A stretch of DNA of 64,000 nucleotides from Saccostrea echinata (taxonomy: Eukaryota): contig NW_026889758.1 in assembly GCF_033153115.1 (NCBI RefSeq), forward strand, positions 44,516,001-44,580,000, given 5' to 3'. Made by a program: the position numbers and the translations under genes. The notes under the pieces are model-generated. The model saw only the letters and a program-made list of their open reading frames with translations. It was not told the origin of the DNA and searched no databases. This document shows, piece after piece, positions 53,301 through 61,536 of the stretch; the first letter of the stretch is position 1, and each line of letters opens with the position of its first letter.

Positions 53301-56300
53301 CCAGATGTGTTCGCAACCCTCCCACTCATCCCTCCGGACCCGCCCCCCTTAAATACAATGCGACAAGTGTTTTGAAAAAGTCTTATAATATTGTAAATAG
53401 ACTATAGACAGACGTGTTAACCACTGTCACTATAAGTTAGTTTAATCACAAGTCTTGAATCACTGTTCCGGACTAGTTTTTGTGCACAATATTGGATTGG
53501 CTGTCCTTTCTCCGCATCAATCCCTATGAGCTGGATTTCCTGCTGGTACCTGTTTGTTGTTGAATATCTGAAAAAAGCAAAAGATCTGACAGCAGATTAC
53601 TGCAATTTGGTGACATTTTCATTAGCCAATGATTGCATTGGCTAATGACGGATAACTCTTTCATATTGATGATAGGTTTGGATATTTTGGTAGAATTTTC
53701 TTAAAGTTTTAGGGAATATATGAGATGGCATAAAGGAATGTACGAATCAAATAGTATGAAATTACATGTATATAAAAAAGGGGACGGGTGGGTGGGTAAT
53801 AATTTTGATGTGGATCTCCTGCCTCACCCTGTTGCTGGATGGCGGGAAAAGGAAGTGCCATCAATTAATCAACTCGTACCAATACGAGTCTTTTGCCTTT
53901 TGGATTATAACCAATTCGTTCCACTATTAGTTTTAACAACATTGTAATGTGCTTCCGTCAATTAAATGAGATTAATTTGGTATAAGGGCAAATTAATCTG
54001 CCTTAATTGAACAGTCAGGTAATCACTGCCCCGCAGGACCTGACATGCCTTGTTACTTGATTCTTTTCACACATACGGTCATCATGACCTTTCCTTGTTG
54101 CCAGCTTTACAATAGACAACAGCTGCATAATTTTCATTACATTTATTAAAGACTTGAACAAAAACATATACAATCTTGCATTACTCATAACTGTGATGGA
54201 CATAAGGGAATTGGCATTAAATGGCCGCATTGCATAAATGTACAATCAAAAAATAGGGTCCAGGAGGGATAGCTGGCATACCGACTAATAAGTACCGGGC
54301 AAAACCAGTGGCCCTGTGTTAGTCACAGATGCCCGAGATCCCAAATTTAGGTACTAGACATTAGGGACCGAGAGATTTGCGAGCACATCTGTATACCCTG
54401 CTTCCGGAGATTGCTTCTGGTCAGCAGTACTTTTACACCCAAGTACTCCAGCACTAAGCCTCCCCTCCTGTTACAAGAGGTGGAGGGGGCCCCAGGCCTG
54501 CAGACTTGGCTACGACCCCAATCGAAAACTTTTTACTTGACTTTTTACTTGACTTTTATTACACATTGCCATAGGTTGGATACTTTGTAGACAACCTGTC
54601 TACCCAACAATGTGCCCACCAACTTGTCTGATGGCTGGGCAGGGAAACAACGAGCCAGATGTGTTCGCAACCCTCCCACTCATCCCTCCGGACCCGCCAC
54701 AGACATCGATATGATGTTCCTCCATTACTTTACATTAAGGGATACTTTTCCCTTCCCTTGAATGAGGGACCACAATCCACTTTTTATGTTATTTAAGAAA
54801 GTTCTGTTGCCAAGCTCAGAGAGGTGTGTACCATCAAATCTAAACAATTCCGGATTAGCAACGGATATGTTTGCATGTGAAATTACACCCCCACCCATTT
54901 CTGCGACAAATTTTGAGATATTTTTGTTAATTCTTTTACGTTTCTTGTCTATCTTTTTTCCACTGTTCAATGGAGCTCCATGCCAATAACGGCGTGGTAG
55001 AATGTGTGACCACACCAGTTTAGTATTTGGGAGAAGAGCATTATATCGCAGGAAGCTGCATTGAATCTCTTGTATGAATTTTTTGCTAGTTAAGTTTGGA
55101 GTTACCAAATCGTTGGATCCTAGATGAATTACTAAGTAATTTGGGGGTACTTCATGCTTGATGAGCTGTAGGATTTGTGGGTCTAATTCCTGCCAGTGCA
55201 TCCCCCTGCGTGATCTCCATAGCAGTGTGGCAGGGAGGTTCAGGCTTTGTCCCCCTGGGCAGTGTTTGGCTGCTTCCCCTGCCCAAAAAGGAATGGATGA
55301 TCCTATGATCCATACTTTTAGACCTGCAATGCTTTGGGTTGGTTAGTTTTGGATTTTAAATTGACTACACACATGTCCAAATATCCCCCCCCCCCCCCGG
55401 CATCGATGGGTAGATGTCTGTAGTCCTAGTAGGCATGGGAATGTTGTTGTGAACCAAGTTACATGATCCTTATGTATTTAAGAAAAGCTACTGATTTCCA
55501 TCTACCAAACTTCTGAATTTCAGAATCGGATGTGCCCTGTAATGCAAGGTCTGTTGCCCTCCCAATTCGAAAGCTGTGTGTGCCAAAATGGCCTGGTGTT
55601 GGTATTATGTTTTCAATAGCCTTTTGAAGGACTGCGTTGAATTGATATCTCGTCAATGGTTTTGTATTAAGATGAATTAGAAAACTGTGGTTAACAGGGG
55701 TATGGGGCCTACACTTGATAAAATCCAAGGTAGCTTTAACTGGGCACAGGGTAGCAAGTGGCTGGCTATGGATAATAAAGGTGGTATTCTTACCCACCTG
55801 GTCAGTTTTGGAGTGTGGTATGGTTAACCTTAAATAGGGCTTGTGTGGATGTGCTTGAATGTGTTTGAGTTGTATGCAATGGGATGAATTCGGTGTGTTT
55901 GAGTTGACTAAAGTGAATTCCCCTACGCGAAGTAATGCAAAGTATGCTAATGAAAAAGCACATGTGAACAGTTTGACCTCGTAAGTGGAGCAACACACTG
56001 ACTGTAGTGATATAACAAGCTTTTCCAAAATTGGTAGGGTTATTGGGAGGCGGCTGTCTGGAACAACTCTGTTGTTGCGCTTTAAGCCTTGAAGTGCTTT
56101 GTTAATTTGGAAGGACTTGGTAGGGTCAGGAAGATGGTTTATTTTGTGGAAGTATGACAATGCACTAATGTAAAGGGACACTGAATTGGCTGACATTTTT
56201 TGGATGGATAGGTAGGCTATAAAATATAGTAATATGTTGCTGTGCAGGGGCCAGGTTTGCTGTAAGCCATAAATGTTTAAAAATGATTGGAATTTATTCA

Positions 56301-59300
56301 GTGCAGCCCGGTAAGCTTTGTAGGTGTTTTGTGACAAGGAGCTATGAATAAGGCGTTTGGACTCAGCAATTAGATTTCCCATATCTGCTTGGGGAGCTGT
56401 GTGGGCCACATCTCTGCCTCTGGAGCCAGGTTGCGAAACTTTCCCCACTGTGAACGAGAAATACTGTCAGCTATTTTGTTCATTTTTGTTGGGATGTGTT
56501 GGGCTTTAATTGTAATGTTATGTTGCAAAGTGAGGAGAACAAGTTTTCTGACAGTGTTCATTACCCTTGTTGACTTAGATGTCAATGTGTTAATGACTTG
56601 TACAACTGCCATGTTGTCAATGTGGAAAAGTATGCGTTTGTTTGATAACCATGGGTGCCATAACAGGAGTGAAACATATACTGGAAATAGTTCTAAGAAT
56701 GTCATGTCACGAATAACGTCAGAAAACACCCAGTGGGTAGGCCATTTTGAGTGAGCCCAGCGGCCAGCAAAAAAGATTCCAAACCCCCCATTAAACCCCC
56801 CTGCGCTATCTGTGAATAGCTGTAGACTGTTATCTGATGACCAAATACCGGAGCATATGACTGTGACCCCATTAAAGTGTTTCAAAAATTGCTGCCATAC
56901 TGCAAGGTCTGCTTTCATACCTTGATTAACTCTTATCATGTGATATGATTTTTTGATGCCAATAGTGGCATCAACTAGTCGCCTGCAAAAGGCTCTGCCA
57001 GGTGCTACTGTTTTGCAGGCAAAATTGAGGAAGCCAATCAGTGATTGTAAGGCCTTTAAGGAGACCTTTTTACTTATCATGACTGTTTGAATGCTTTGTC
57101 GGAGAGAAACTAACTTGTCTTGCGGAAGTAGCATTACCATGTGGATTGTGTCAAATTCAATTCCTAGAAAAATTATTGTTGTGCTAGGCTCGGTGGTTTT
57201 GTCAAGAGCTATTGGTATTCCGATATGGCTACAGATATTTTTGAAAAGGTCGAGGGTAGATTGGCACTGATTAGAATTTGGTGGTCCCGCGAAGAGAAAA
57301 TCATCTAAATAGTGTAGAATATGGGGGTTACGTGAGCTAGATTGAATGATCCAATGTAATGCAGTTGCGAACTTCTCCCAGATTGCGCAGCTAATGGATG
57401 CACCGAATGGCATCATTTTGTCAAAAAAGTATTTACCCTGGAATTTAAACCCCAATAGATCAAAATCATTTTTGGCCACAGGAATGAGCCGGAATGCAGA
57501 TTTTATGTCGGATTTAGCCAATAAAGTACCTGCCCCCAGTGTCGAGATGATGGCTGCTGCGTCGTCCACTGATGCGTAGTGTACTGAACATGCAGCTGGA
57601 TCTATAAAGGAATTGATCGATTGATGTTCTGGGAAGGACAGGTGATGGATGAGTCTAAAATCTCCATCTTTTTTGGGGACAAGTCCTAATGGTGAAATTT
57701 GAAGGGATGGGAATGGTGGGTATTCAAATGGTCCCCCTACCCTCTGGAGCAGGAGTTCTTTATGTATTTTGTGTTCCACTATACTGGGGTTTACTATAGC
57801 ACTTTTTAAATTTTTTGATTCCCTGTAAATTCTTGGGCCATTGTACTGGAGTTGAAAACCATGTAGGAAACCGTTTATGAGAAAAGATTTAGCACTGTAA
57901 CCTTGTAGATAAGTAGACAAATTGGAGACATCAATTGGAGTTTTTCCTAAACTGTTGATATCCTCGTTAGAATCATGTATTTCTATTCCTGCATTTGATT
58001 GAGGGGTGTGATCCGCCACATGAATTGCACGAGTGGACAAACCTGCAATTTGGGTAGAATTTGCATCACTTGCCTGAATTAAAATCATAACAGTAACGAT
58101 TGGGTGCTGAATTTACATTTTTCTTAGCTGCTGGTATATTGGGCTGTTTATGTTGGGGGAAAAAATTTTGTGTGGGAGATATGGGCTTTTCTTGGGCCTG
58201 CATGGTGTAATTGTTGGTGACATGGATCAACCAGAGTTCAGAGTTTATGATTCCCCAGGACGAGTGTGGGTCTGACACTTTGCGAAGCCGAAATTGTTCA
58301 TCATATGTGAACCAACCATTCCCCGATCTGTCTGCTGCCATTCTTACATCCCTCATATATTTCAAAAATTCTTGGGCTCTAGATCTATATTTTTCTAACA
58401 TAATACTTGTGAAGATGATGAAGGCTGAAGTCCATTTTTCAATTGACAAAAAGGTGCGGGGTTTATGCTTCACAAGGCACATTGTGCCGTTGCGTATTTG
58501 TATTTGGCCTTGTGTATCTAAGTGATCTGAGATTTCCCGCGCCGATTTTAGAAGTATGGATAGATCGACAAATTTTCCCTCCCAAATTTTTTGTTTAATT
58601 TTTAGTGGAACATGGGCGCTAATGGGATCTAAAGAACTGGGGGTTTGAGCAGGTTGGTAATCCGCAATGCTAAATGGGGGGCCACCGAATTCACTATTGT
58701 TTGTATGGTGTGTTAAGGCATCTACTGTGGGGAGCAAAATGTCACACTCACCCGAGATGTAATAATTTTGATGTGGATCTCCTGCCTCACCCTGTTGCTG
58801 GATGGCGGGAAAAGGAAGTGCCATCAATTAATCAACTCGTACCAATACGAGTCTTTTGCCTTTTGGATTATAACCAATTCGTTCCACTATTAGTTTTAAC
58901 AACATTGTAATGTGCTTCCGTCAATTAAATGAGATTAATTTGGTATAAGGGCAAATTAATCTGCCTTGTAGTGAAACTTTCAATTACTTCCTGGAATATT
59001 TATGATATTTTTTATTTAGATCAGTACCTTGTTATTTCAGGGAAGAAAAGAATAGACACCTTGGCATGGAACACCACCTACTTCAGAACAAGAATGAGAG
59101 AGATGGGATTTATTGTGTATGGAAATGATCACTCACCAGTTGTTCCAACTCTGTTATTTATGCCTGGGAAAATTAGGTAAACATTGTACTGTTTTCTTTT
59201 GCACATGTTAAACTTATCTCTAGCAGTTCAAAAAAAAAAAAAAATTAAAATTAAAATAAAAAAAACAAACAATGTAAACTTTTCTCATGAGAATCAGATT

Positions 59301-61536
59301 AATTTACAAGATGATTCTGAATGATGAGCTAATTTCTAACACCAGGGCAGGAGTAAATGCTTACTGATTTTAATTAAGGAATAACTGTCTAATTTTTTGG
59401 ATTCATGATGTGATCAATCGAGTGGCTTGCGTGATAATTTGCATAAACACCGAAGGCGTTTATGCATAAAATTATCACGCAAGCCAATCGATTGATCATC
59501 GTCATGAATCCAAAAAATCTGACAGTTATTCCTTATATTTACATGCTCCTGATTCTGCAAATTCCCGTGCTAATAGCCCTGCTTCTGTCTCTATTTGTCC
59601 CGCCCCGCACAAGTTTTTTTTTAACCGCGCCTATCGATGAACCAGTAGATTTATGTAGAAATAAAGTATTTTTACAATTTGTAATTTTATCTCGGACAAA
59701 GACATTGGAAATGTAAATATTTACATTTATTCAATTAATTTAAGATACCATGTTTACCCTCAAAATTTTAATTTTGTATATATACAGATAATCCTTCTTT
59801 CACTCTCTTACTTATGTATTTTATTTAAGTTGCCTTAGTAGAGAGTGTTTGCAGAGGGGATTGGGAATCGTGGTGGTAGGGTTTCCAGCAACCCCCATTA
59901 TTGAGTCCAGGGCAAGATTCTGCCTGTCTGCAGCCCACACAAAGGAAATGTTAGACAAGGTATGCCTGCTTAATCATTACTTTTATGATTTTATTAAGGT
60001 CTTCAATTTTTATTTATTTATTTTTTTTTTTTGAAAAGAGAAATATAGTTAATAGTATACTTATTGATGTATGGTACATAGAATTAGTTCCAACTCTTCC
60101 AACTGGCCTTTACTCAGAAATCTTAGGGATGACATAAAATGCTTAGTACATGAGCTTTGTCAAGTCATGCTGTAATATTTCTGCCCTCTGTTTTCATTTG
60201 TTCTTCAGCAACATTGCATGTAACTCTTTCATTGTTTCTACTGAAATGATACAGAATTTTAAAAAATAATACATGTACAGTGTATGTAGAATGTAATGGC
60301 CAAATTACTATAATATTGCCCTGGATAAAAGAAAGAATATTCTTCTATCTTTAAGATTTTGTATGTAATAATGAGCTATGATTACCTGGTATTTGCTTTT
60401 TTTTCTTCCCAAAAAAAACTTATGTACCAGAATTTGTTATGAATTGAATATAAGATATGTGGGCAAAGGGAGTTAAGTTACCTTTGCATTTTTATTGTCC
60501 TAGTTCTTGTTCAGATATGCTGATACGTATTGGTGAGAGTTATTCAACATCAACAAATTAGACCTTGCCTTTCCTTTGACCTTAACCTCACTTTTCTGAA
60601 ATTTGTGTTTAGCTCAGTTCCAAAGAAACTACTCAAGATATTTTTATCAAACTTCATATGCTAATACATAATGATGAGATTTATTCAACTGCATCAATAT
60701 TTTGATTTTGACCTTTCCTTTGACCTTGACCTCAATTTTCTGAAATTTGCATATAGCTCAGTTTCAAAGAAACTACTAGTATTCCTGGCAGATATATTTA
60801 TCAAACTTTGTATGCTGATACATATTGGTTTGGAGCTATGAATTGCATCAATTTTTTTTAACTTGACCTTCTGTATGTTTTTGATGTTATTTTTCTTAAG
60901 TTTGTGTTGGAACTATTCAAAAGATTTTTTTATCTAAACACATATACTGATATATATTGGTGAGATCTTGTCAATTGTGTCCAAATTTTTTTTTACCTCG
61001 ACATTCCCTTTGACCTTACTATTTGTTGTGTATAAAAGTCAGTTTCAAAGAAACTCTTCAAGATATTTTCATCAAACTTCATATATTAAAACAAATTGTG
61101 AGAGCTATTTAACTTTGTCAAATTTTCTGAAACAAACTTCCCTGTGACCTAGACCTCTCTATTTCTCATTTACCCAAATCTTAAACAAAGAGGCAAGGTA
61201 CATTTTTTTTCCATGTTGCATTACTAATAAACCCTGGGAGGTGCATTCATGTCCTATAGACATATTTCTAGTTATTGATACTTAAATATGCTATACAATT
61301 AAAAATTCTGAGTTGTCAGTATAAAACAGTCTGCAAGTAATTTCAAGTGTTATTCCCAAACTGTAATTTACCGTTATCTTTTTCACACTTAATATTTTCA
61401 GGCTTTAAATATTCTGGATGAAGTAGGAGATTTATTAAAGTTGAAATATTCAAGATTAAAACCACAGAAAGCTGTAACAGAAAGTGAAGAGAAAGAGCCC
61501 AAAAATGGTACCAGATCTCACAGGTATAATCCTTGA
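41273..61536 (+). CDS. SPTLC2: Serine palmitoyltransferase long chain base subunit 2 (SPTLC2/3, LCB2), 558 aa; exons 41273-41398, 44082-44258, 44639-44793, 47495-47640, 48292-48416, 48862-48955, 49366-49471, 50609-50828, 51882-52008, 59041-59176, 59830-59959, 61402-61536
   Basis: Motifs [59 protein letters not shown]-lysine [16 protein letters not shown]…[11 protein letters not shown]. All GT-AG; total 1677 nt in frame. Confidence 0.96.
44082..44258 (+). CDS. SPTLC2: SPTLC2 exon 2
   Basis: [16 protein letters not shown]…RDFLR. Confidence 0.92.
44639..44793 (+). CDS. SPTLC2: SPTLC2 exon 3
   Basis: [28 protein letters not shown]. Confidence 0.94.
44995..45414. mobile_element. hAT-type MITE
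   Basis: TAGGGGTGAAACG…CGTTTCACTCCTA, 8-bp TSD ATGCCCAA. Confidence 0.88.
47495..47640 (+). CDS. SPTLC2: SPTLC2 exon 4
   Basis: [10 protein letters not shown]. Confidence 0.94.
48292..48416 (+). CDS. SPTLC2: SPTLC2 exon 5
   Basis: [11 protein letters not shown]. Confidence 0.94.
48862..48955 (+). CDS. SPTLC2: SPTLC2 exon 6
   Basis: [22 protein letters not shown]…FKHN. Confidence 0.94.
49366..49471 (+). CDS. SPTLC2: SPTLC2 exon 7
   Basis: [18 protein letters not shown]. Confidence 0.94.
49511..49898. mobile_element. MITE with CAGGG termini and 5-bp TSD (hAT5-like)
   Basis: CAGGGATTTTTCCACT / AGTGGAAAATCCCTG, flanks TGATC. Confidence 0.75.
50609..50828 (+). CDS. SPTLC2: SPTLC2 exon 8 (PLP-binding lysine)
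   Basis: LDEAHSIGA…[14 protein letters not shown]. Confidence 0.96.
51882..52008 (+). CDS. SPTLC2: SPTLC2 exon 9
   Basis: [15 protein letters not shown]…GKDGTDEG. Confidence 0.93.
52649..53344 (-). repeat. Ngaro repeat B2 (696 bp), copy of 54003-54698
   Basis: Constant 1354-bp offset; no differences noticed by eye. Confidence 0.95.
53796..54004 (-). repeat. Ngaro repeat A2 (209 bp), copy of 58759-58967
   Basis: Constant 4963-bp offset. Confidence 0.95.
54003..54698 (-). repeat. Ngaro repeat B1
   Basis: Direct repeat of 52649-53344. Confidence 0.95.
54725..55323 (-). CDS. SGNH/GDSL hydrolase of the Ngaro element (frame extends 40 codons upstream of the listed ATG)
   Basis: Block I VWIIGSSI (~55315-55292), block III HLGSND, block V DGTH. 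Confidence 0.9.
55459..56448 (-). CDS. Tyrosine recombinase (integrase)
   Basis: Catalytic R (LLRVGE), K (HSKTDQ), HSFR, GRWKS, Y (FLKYIR); overlaps the end of the RT ORF. Confidence 0.96.
   Translation of the reverse strand: MGKVSQPGSRGRDVAHTAPQADMGNLIAESKRLIHSSLSQNTYKAYRAALNKFQSFLNIYGLQQTWPLHSNILLYFIAYLSIQKMSANSVSLYISALSYFHKINHLPDPTKSFQINKALQGLKRNNRVVPDSRLPITLPILEKLVISLQSVCCSTYEVKLFTCAFSLAYFALLRVGEFTLVNSNTPNSSHCIQLKHIQAHPHKPYLRLTIPHSKTDQVGKNTTFIIHSQPLATLCPVKATLDFIKCRPHTPVNHSFLIHLNTKPLTRYQFNAVLQKAIENIIPTPGHFGTHSFRIGRATDLALQGTSDSEIQKFGRWKSVAFLKYIRIM
56370..58088 (-). CDS. Reverse transcriptase / RNase H (DIRS/Ngaro type)
   Basis: [36 protein letters not shown]; RNaseH FTDSAG, LELFPV, HIDN, IADSISR. 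Confidence 0.96.
   Translation of the reverse strand: MILIQASDANSTQIAGLSTRAIHVADHTPQSNAGIEIHDSNEDINSLGKTPIDVSNLSTYLQGYSAKSFLINGFLHGFQLQYNGPRIYRESKNLKSAIVNPSIVEHKIHKELLLQRVGGPFEYPPFPSLQISPLGLVPKKDGDFRLIHHLSFPEHQSINSFIDPAACSVHYASVDDAAAIISTLGAGTLLAKSDIKSAFRLIPVAKNDFDLLGFKFQGKYFFDKMMPFGASISCAIWEKFATALHWIIQSSSRNPHILHYLDDFLFAGPPNSNQCQSTLDLFKNICSHIGIPIALDKTTEPSTTIIFLGIEFDTIHMVMLLPQDKLVSLRQSIQTVMISKKVSLKALQSLIGFLNFACKTVAPGRAFCRRLVDATIGIKKSYHMIRVNQGMKADLAVWQQFLKHFNGVTVICSGIWSSDNSLQLFTDSAGGFNGGFGIFFAGRWAHSKWPTHWVFSDVIRDMTFLELFPVYVSLLLWHPWLSNKRILFHIDNMAVVQVINTLTSKSTRVMNTVRKLVLLTLQHNITIKAQHIPTKMNKIADSISRSQWGKFRNLAPEAEMWPTQLPKQIWEI
57973..58824 (-). CDS. Ngaro gag-like ORF with C-terminal CCCH + CCHC zinc fingers; in-frame TGA at 58066-58068
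   Basis: [40 protein letters not shown] motifs; the same frame continues past TGA as [25 protein letters not shown]. Confidence 0.85.
58759..58967 (-). repeat. Ngaro repeat A1
   Basis: Direct repeat of 53796-54004; contains the gag ATG. Confidence 0.95.
59041..59176 (+). CDS. SPTLC2: SPTLC2 exon 10
   Basis: [15 protein letters not shown]. Confidence 0.94.
59375..59535. repeat. 161-bp palindrome (hairpin), probably transposon-derived
   Basis: ~75-bp arms TAAGGAATAACTGTC…GCATAAAC / GTTTATGC…GACAGTTATTCCTTA around a CCGAAGG loop. Confidence 0.85.
59830..59959 (+). CDS. SPTLC2: SPTLC2 exon 11
   Basis: [24 protein letters not shown]. Confidence 0.94.
60500..61272. repeat. Degenerate ~145-bp tandem array of an old HINE-like element
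   Basis: Repeated TTTGACCTT…GCTCAGTTTCAAAGAAACTACT…ATCAAACTT units. Confidence 0.65.
61402..61536 (+). CDS. SPTLC2: SPTLC2 exon 12 (last coding)
   Basis: [18 protein letters not shown]…RYNP*. Confidence 0.9.
   Translation, partial: ALNILDEVGDLLKLKYSRLKPQKAVTESEEKEPKNGTRSHRYNP

Follow-up and report, generated by a model that had tools for sequence, protein, structure and literature searches.

Alternative splicing from a single gag donor as the likely route of enzyme expression in a Ngaro-type retrotransposon of Saccostrea echinata

The element and its coding regions

The window is a stretch of 64,000 nucleotides (nt) from Saccostrea echinata (assembly GCF_033153115.1, contig NW_026889758.1, positions 44,516,001 to 44,580,000). 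Its minus strand carries a complete element with split direct repeats, arranged as A1, gag, reverse transcriptase (RT)/RNase H, tyrosine recombinase (YR), SGNH hydrolase, B1, A2, spacer and B2. By repeat layout and domain content, it is classified as a Ngaro-type retrotransposon of the order DIRS. The element likely expresses SGNH, RT/RNase H and probably YR by alternative splicing, with one donor joined to three acceptors. A first-pass annotation of the window had proposed one of these splices, from a 5' leader to SGNH, and an env-like role for its product. The features of the element are listed below; a slash within letters marks a splice site.

58759..58967, minus strand: A1 split direct repeat, 209 nt, identical (100%) to A2; contains ATG 58824 and a second donor (58791/58790)
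58759..58760, minus strand: site of a 328-nt deletion private to the window copy; the lost segment bears the ATG of gag and the greater part of the basic leader
58746..58754, minus strand: shared phase-1 donor CGG/GTGAGT, exon end 58752 (sibling conservation and a joint in run X11)
58066..58758, minus strand: remainder of gag; in the window copy a premature stop (58068-58066) precedes the Cys/His-rich end, which siblings read through to
58040..58054, minus strand: RT acceptor AATTGCAG/GT (58043/58042), phase 1, within gag (exact 709-nt loss in copies L048 and L063; joint in run X11)
56370..58042, minus strand: RT/RNase H exon (Pfam RVT_1, E 1e-14; RVT_3 below cut-off)
56445..56462, minus strand: predicted YR acceptor TCTCGTTCACAG/TGG (56448/56447), phase 1 in the YR frame, within the SRxQW motif of RNase H
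55459..56447, minus strand: tyrosine recombinase exon (Pfam Phage_int_SAM_1 and Phage_integrase); an ATG in this frame is also present at 56382 in the window family
55342..55347, minus strand: branch-point-like ACTAAC, including an in-frame TAA (sequence and sibling alignment)
55321..55330, minus strand: SGNH acceptor TTGCAG/GT (55324/55323), phase 1; conserved, with the equivalent site used in copies L169 and L187
54725..55323, minus strand: SGNH hydrolase exon with GSS, GSND and DGTH blocks (Pfam Lipase_GDSL_2, E 3e-5, below cut-off; catalytic columns; model and fold search)
54003..54698, minus strand: B1 repeat, about 696 nt (sibling alignment)
53796..54004, minus strand: A2 repeat, identical to A1
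53345..53795, minus strand: spacer of about 450 nt between A2 and B2, also in other full copies
52649..53344, minus strand: B2 repeat, 3' end of the element (sibling alignment)

Gag has no Pfam match and was identified from its position and its conservation across families. A methyltransferase domain, the mark of DIRS and PAT elements, was not found by Pfam at E 0.1 in the open reading frame (ORF) of 580 amino acids (aa). Its lack separates Ngaro from DIRS and PAT in the available parts of two descriptions (PMC9210276, PMC7192593). The Ngaro features found here are the A1-ORFs-B1-A2-B2 repeats, a gag-like ORF with RT/RNase H and YR, the missing methyltransferase and an SGNH ORF after YR.

Recomputation placed every minus-strand site of the first-pass annotation where it had been reported: ATG 58824, both donors, ACTAAC, TTGCAG/GT, the TAA and ATG 55201. 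The donors TCGG/GTGAGT (58752/58751) and CAGG/GTGAGG (58791/58790) are both in phase 1. For the window copy, the intron length of 3428 nt and the product of 223 aa (210 aa via the second donor) are also correct. Unspliced RNA indeed offers no ATG for an active SGNH: a TAA lies in frame at 55345, and the first in-frame ATG, 55201, is downstream of GSS. The same holds for siblings. By inspection, none of 29 aligned family loci, which include the window copy, has an in-frame ATG between stop and GSS; ACTAAC is present in 27 and TTGCAG/GT in 28 of them. As these signals are kept in siblings, the missing SGNH start is not damage to the window copy. A nonsense mutation in this copy was ruled out as the cause because the stop is common to siblings. 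A run of G was ruled out as a frameshift or start device by its widely differing length between copies.

The proposed N-terminus did not survive the comparison with siblings. The window copy lacks 328 nt directly after A1; siblings carry the segment, which matches 29 other places and not the window. ATG 58824, part of the A repeat, owes its shared frame with gag solely to this deletion; in the intact copy L046 the ATG starts an upstream ORF of 103 codons that is out of frame with gag. The deletion removes the gag ATG and an early stop interrupts gag; the protein starting with MALPF, with its size of 223 aa, is therefore peculiar to one damaged copy and not the normal product. In L046, the donor closes a coding exon of 283 nt, equal to 94 codons with 16 Arg and an isoelectric point of about 11, and the predicted leader-SGNH protein has 293 aa. 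The second donor, suggested as an alternative, is used in none of 12 junctions in family copies and in no joint of four sequencing runs. A conservation check for it in the nearest family returned nothing. Three internal deletions (window 58760/58759, L037 and L057) begin at the A-repeat end or only a few bases away from it, which may hint that strands are transferred from the A end in the course of reverse transcription.

Splice sites and spliced copies

The conservation of the SGNH acceptor was analysed across families. From 556 SGNH candidates, 150 were scored, and 100 more distant loci of the same genome were combined with three earlier ones. The block-I motif was present in 89 of these 103 loci, which clustered into 27 families; the 14 loci without it were dropped before clustering. 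The families reach down to about 32% protein identity. A phase-1 YAG at most 45 nt before GSS is present in 26 of 27 families, compared to 4 and 3 for the other phases and 7.1 +/- 2.3 for shuffles. A plain phase-1 YAG also occurs in 11-18 of 27 coding windows; this frequency weakens the argument from YAG alone, and a test on T at position -5 was therefore used. T at -5 is typical of invertebrate acceptors. TnYAG 15-45 nt before GSS occurs in phase 1 in 24 of 27 families, in phase 0 in none and in phase 2 in one; 15 coding windows of the same size gave 0-7 of 27. T at -5 characterises 27 of 30 candidate acceptor sites and 57 of 197 coding sites. The acceptor and its phase, for which cross-family conservation had been proposed as a check, thus held in the 24 families with TnYAG. 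No in-frame ATG precedes the upstream stop in 22 of the 27 family representatives. The same acceptor was found in three of four metagenome contigs. One metagenome contig, L184, encodes gag, RT/RNase H and SGNH without YR between them and retains an SG/E donor footprint and the SGNH acceptor.

Genomic copies spliced from donor to SGNH were sought by predicting donors first and then searching the DNA spanning the leader in seven families. Family 12 had no donor from the prediction step, and the donor of family 15 came from a separate analysis. Two matches ended exactly at the predicted donor, one each among 29 in family 14 (L169) and 11 in family 7 (L187), and both resume at the predicted SGNH acceptor. 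For L169, the reference reads CCAG/GTATGC ... TTGTAG/ATTCAATCTGG; 3364 nt are missing, and shortly after the join the copy has one substitution and an additional base. For L187, the reference reads GCAG/GTATAA ... TTTCAG/ATTACATATGG; the copy has the same length and two substitutions and stays in frame across the join. Both copies are decayed (71-86% identical to the references) and bounded by element repeats, and families 7 and 14 are sister families. The most plausible origin of L169 and L187 is retrocopying of spliced RNA. No match ended at the predicted donor in families 12, 4, 18 and 8 (23, 12, 30 and 11 matches searched) or in family 15 (40 of 143 candidates). Among 17 stretches examined, two are exact splices and the rest are other deletions, insertions or fragments. 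L043 has a 439-nt deletion that ends exactly at the SGNH acceptor (oriented 4425) and starts, without GT, after a pyrimidine-rich CATAG in YR. L072 links the 5' region to SGNH, but it was ruled out as a splice: its join leaves from before the gag ATG and enters 5 nt beyond the acceptor. A weak search for longer fused proteins found none among 819 candidates.

The donor in gag is in use for a second acceptor. It is kept in 21 family copies, with one variant and two spliced copies. In the latter, L048 and L063, exactly 709 nt with GT..AG ends are gone, from the shared donor to AATTGCAG/GT in gag, so that the leader continues into the RT frame. The two copies have 20 differences in exon 1 and different flanks, and each is nearer to unspliced copies than to the other. 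These differences and flanks indicate that the loss arose independently, in two subfamilies. Both are GT..AG, and the other 10 of the 12 internal junctions listed for the family are not. Run X11, the only one of the four runs on record as RNA (the three others are only guessed to be), contains the same donor-to-RT junction as a GT..AG joint from 1325 to 2035 at depth 25. The best leader donor is in phase 1 in 14 of 16 families and 89 of 196 control windows, scored with approximate weights. An X4 contig exits the element at the donor (L046:1327) and has 80 nt of unrelated sequence after it, which may reflect splicing to a host exon. Contigs of X1 and X2 on L046 pass from B through A into gag, a pattern expected from a circle or a collapsed assembly.

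For YR, the SRxQW motif was found in 20 families, and in each of them it provides an AG in phase 1 of the YR frame, which stays open from there; four further families had no match to it. No ATG follows this AG in 16 of the 20. The Gln codon is CAG in 19 of 19 cases, compared to a baseline of 35%, a bias in which the overlapping YR frame may share. In L074, a GT..AG loss of 105 nt ends at this AG and starts from a donor inside RNase H. For RT acceptors, a weight matrix is weak, with the best site in phase 1 in 10 of 20. Some families seem to have an extra intron in the 5' untranslated region, likewise lost in retrocopies: copies are short of 316, 344 and 358 nt upstream of gag (oriented; L121 and L116 versus L120, 2551-2868; L142 versus L165, 2786-3131; L102 versus L098, 2564-2923). 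The losses in L121, L142 and L102 have exact GT..AG ends and lie directly before the gag ATG in families 12 and 7.

The predicted leader-SGNH protein and its relatives

SGNH blocks I (Ser), II (Gly), III (Asn) and V (Asp-x-x-His) are present, with GSS in place of the usual GDS motif. Across 26 aligned sequences, 22 from those of the 27 families that have a long open frame and four from database proteins, G6, S7, S8, D162 and H165 are invariant, and G39 and N69 occur in at least 90%. The structural model has a predicted local distance difference test score (pLDDT) of 95, and the top matches among solved folds are SGNH/GDSL enzymes with template modelling (TM) scores of about 0.6-0.7. The SGNH domain is basic, with 27 Lys/Arg and 11 Asp/Glu. 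All 14 readable leaders begin basic as well, 8-12 of their first 30 residues being Lys/Arg, and the RefSeq protein P0022 (Haliotis) has a basic N-terminus before SGNH.

A retroviral or errantiviral envelope protein, a fusion glycoprotein, has a signal peptide and a transmembrane anchor. Neither hydropathy nor the SGNH fold revealed them: no hydrophobic or transmembrane stretch was found, the best 19-residue hydropathy being 0.67 in SGNH and -0.14 in the leader. The proposed env-like role in egress or entry has no support in such a protein. A spliced RNA from a 5' donor to the last ORF, the other mark of env, is represented by the exact spliced copies of families 7 and 14. The lack of a transmembrane stretch makes the SGNH protein env-like only in its expression route. 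It is predicted to be a soluble basic esterase that acts on membranes from inside the cell. By analogy to the ZfL2-1 esterase, chances are about even that it is associated with particles or ribonucleoproteins and binds membranes.

The window family is young: its SGNH region gives 37 matches, of which 24 are full-length at 91-100%. Most family copies among L031-L055 stop after B1 and have no A2-spacer-B2; few are complete. L062 is a lone A-spacer-B unit. The element in the window lies antisense between exons of the host gene for serine palmitoyltransferase 2 and is flanked by its plus-strand exons 51909-52010 and 59837-59956. A likely middle exon, judged by eye at about 59040-59178, starts some 70 nt from the A1 end. 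A near-perfect palindrome of about 160 nt in the host intron (window 59375-59535) resembles miniature inverted-repeat transposable elements, and degenerate repeats spaced 140-150 nt occur at window 60515-61098.

An intron inside the RT of a fungal DIRS element was reportedly described by Goodwin and Poulter in 2004, in a different arrangement. The Xenopus Ngaro elements DIRS-53_XT and DIRS-54_XT share the layout A1-gag-RT/RH-YR-SGNH-B1-A2-B2, with a hydrolase ORF after YR that is described as having no proven function; the available text contains neither 'splic' nor 'intron' (PMC9210276). Unlike in these elements, start codons are missing from most of the downstream ORFs here, which are linked to a single donor, and a 450-nt spacer separates A2 and B2. 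In the sections of the literature covered, which also included PMC6681497, PMC4157794, PMC3783388, PMC3266345 and PMC9341512 and for which Repbase Reports were out of scope, DIRS-order elements are described with overlapping ORFs, hydrolase function and expression route are not given, and spliced expression of the own ORFs of a YR retrotransposon was not found.

Foamy viruses are a close parallel in expression. According to the excerpts of PMC7828637, they produce Pol and Env from spliced subgenomic RNAs and not by Gag-Pol frameshifting, and a title cited there places the pol acceptor inside gag. Foamy Pol is separate from Gag, and env is expressed via non-coding upstream exons (PMC7828637), whereas here a coding gag exon would fuse its N-terminal leader to each enzyme and integration relies on a tyrosine recombinase. 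Ngaro hydrolase ORFs of unproven function and foamy pol splicing without a gag-derived leader are what the accessible sources already record. ORF1p of the non-LTR (long terminal repeat) retrotransposon ZfL2-1 is an SGNH esterase that has its triad intact and follows basic motifs; it binds negatively charged liposomes and, in contrast to the route proposed here, is a domain of an unspliced ORF1 (excerpts of PMC3905857; PDB 4c1b). The structure 4c1b ranked sixth in the SGNH fold search. At 21% identity, and with bacterial GDSL enzymes and platelet-activating factor acetylhydrolase scoring equally, no special kinship is shown. Bdelloid Vesta elements encode a GDSL/SGNH esterase as ORF3 at the env position, for which the authors propose membrane penetration and yet note missing transmembrane domains. 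They are LTR retrotransposons, and the part of PMC5408684 at hand gives no splicing route for ORF3.

Alternative explanations and the proposed splicing programme

Several observations count against spliced expression as proposed. The RNA junction expected from the first-pass annotation did not appear: no donor-to-SGNH joint, and none to YR, is present in any of the four runs, in contigs that drop rare forms. In X1 and X11, contigs continue through the SGNH acceptor without a break; X4 has no cover there. The donor-to-RT joint of X11 has a short side of 26 nt and a likeness of 85%, stems from a related organism and could derive from a transcribed spliced copy. The window family has no donor-to-SGNH copy among 37 SGNH and 29 leader matches. 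No donor-to-YR copy was found in any family, and the YR splice is hence a predicted step. A weight matrix trained on SGNH acceptors put the best YR site in phase 1 in 8 of 25 and did not favour this phase. The RT acceptor varies in position; 14 of 21 families have a TnYAG in phase 1 within the open RT frame, and 12 of 21 have an ATG upstream. For SGNH, five of the 27 families have an in-frame ATG before GSS, and L183 has no readable acceptor. All four exact junctions contain a microhomology of 2-3 nt, which keeps template switching a formal rival.

Template switching of RT at short homologies would produce exact deletions without splicing, and SGNH translation would rely on reinitiation after YR, readthrough, a non-AUG start or an internal promoter. 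The junctions share AG, CAG or GGT, 10 of the 12 internal junctions of the family are not GT..AG, L043 reaches the SGNH acceptor exactly from a non-GT start, and five families have an upstream ATG. Yet the two matches with an end at a predicted donor both continue precisely at the predicted SGNH acceptor, and two subfamilies show the identical 709-nt loss. Three further points also count against it: the stop before SGNH is the TAA of the branch-point motif, the G-run upstream varies freely in length, and the distance between YR and SGNH ranges from 64 to 249 nt. This combination is quite improbable. Splicing may instead be real and incidental or host-imposed, with cryptic sites or RNA inactivation and idle spliced products. 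Other GT..AG losses bring no coding gain, such as the 105 nt within RNase H of L074, and both donor-to-SGNH copies are decayed, at the 71-86% identity given above. This explanation is improbable: the acceptors lie in the sole frame-fusing phase (24 versus 0 versus 1 of 27) in families as distant as about 32% protein identity, and the catalytic residues are invariant although 22 of 27 families have no other start. An ATG in the A repeat might supply the start, via the second donor (210 aa) or, in the window copy, via the first donor (223 aa), for a protein with an env-like role. This ATG and its phase-1 donor are also present in the intact L046, and the frame is intact in the window copy. No junction uses the second donor, however, the 223-aa frame needs the private deletion, and the spliced copies use the donor inside gag. 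The missing hydrophobic segment (0.67 in SGNH, -0.14 in the leader) also counts against this version, which is very improbable as a whole.

Alternative splicing from the gag donor remains the preferred explanation. For the splice from 58752 to 55324, acceptor conservation, spliced copies of sister families and donor use provide support; it was not seen in the window family itself, for which SGNH splicing is inferred. The expression route is wider than first proposed, as the same donor serves RT and probably YR, while the N-terminus and the env function of the first proposal fell away. In this programme, a phase-1 donor in the gag N-terminus would be joined to three phase-1 acceptors, for RT, YR and SGNH, and unspliced RNA would provide Gag and the genome or template. 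In L046, introns of 709, 2304 and 3425 nt would yield leader-RT (651 aa), leader-YR (423 aa) and leader-SGNH (293 aa), sharing the 94-codon Arg-rich leader. The basic leader may tag each enzyme for the RNA or the particle of the element. The weak pyrimidine tracts noted in the first-pass annotation would suit partial splicing. A further proposal, about as likely as not, is that in animal Ngaro retrotransposons the programme replaces Gag-Pol frameshifting and the gag exon serves RT, YR and the esterase as a common packaging or targeting tag. The esterase would then be carried along by the particle and remodel a membrane before integration.

The splicing programme offers an answer to how Ngaro-class elements express genes that mostly have no start codon. 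If it is true, Ngaro RT, YR and SGNH as usually annotated miss their true N-terminus, which matters for their biochemistry, and with the right protein the hydrolase question can be put to the test. The balance between Gag, enzymes and genome would depend on splice choice, which would offer the host a point of control. The naturally spliced genomic copies show that such RNAs can be reverse-transcribed and integrated in trans.

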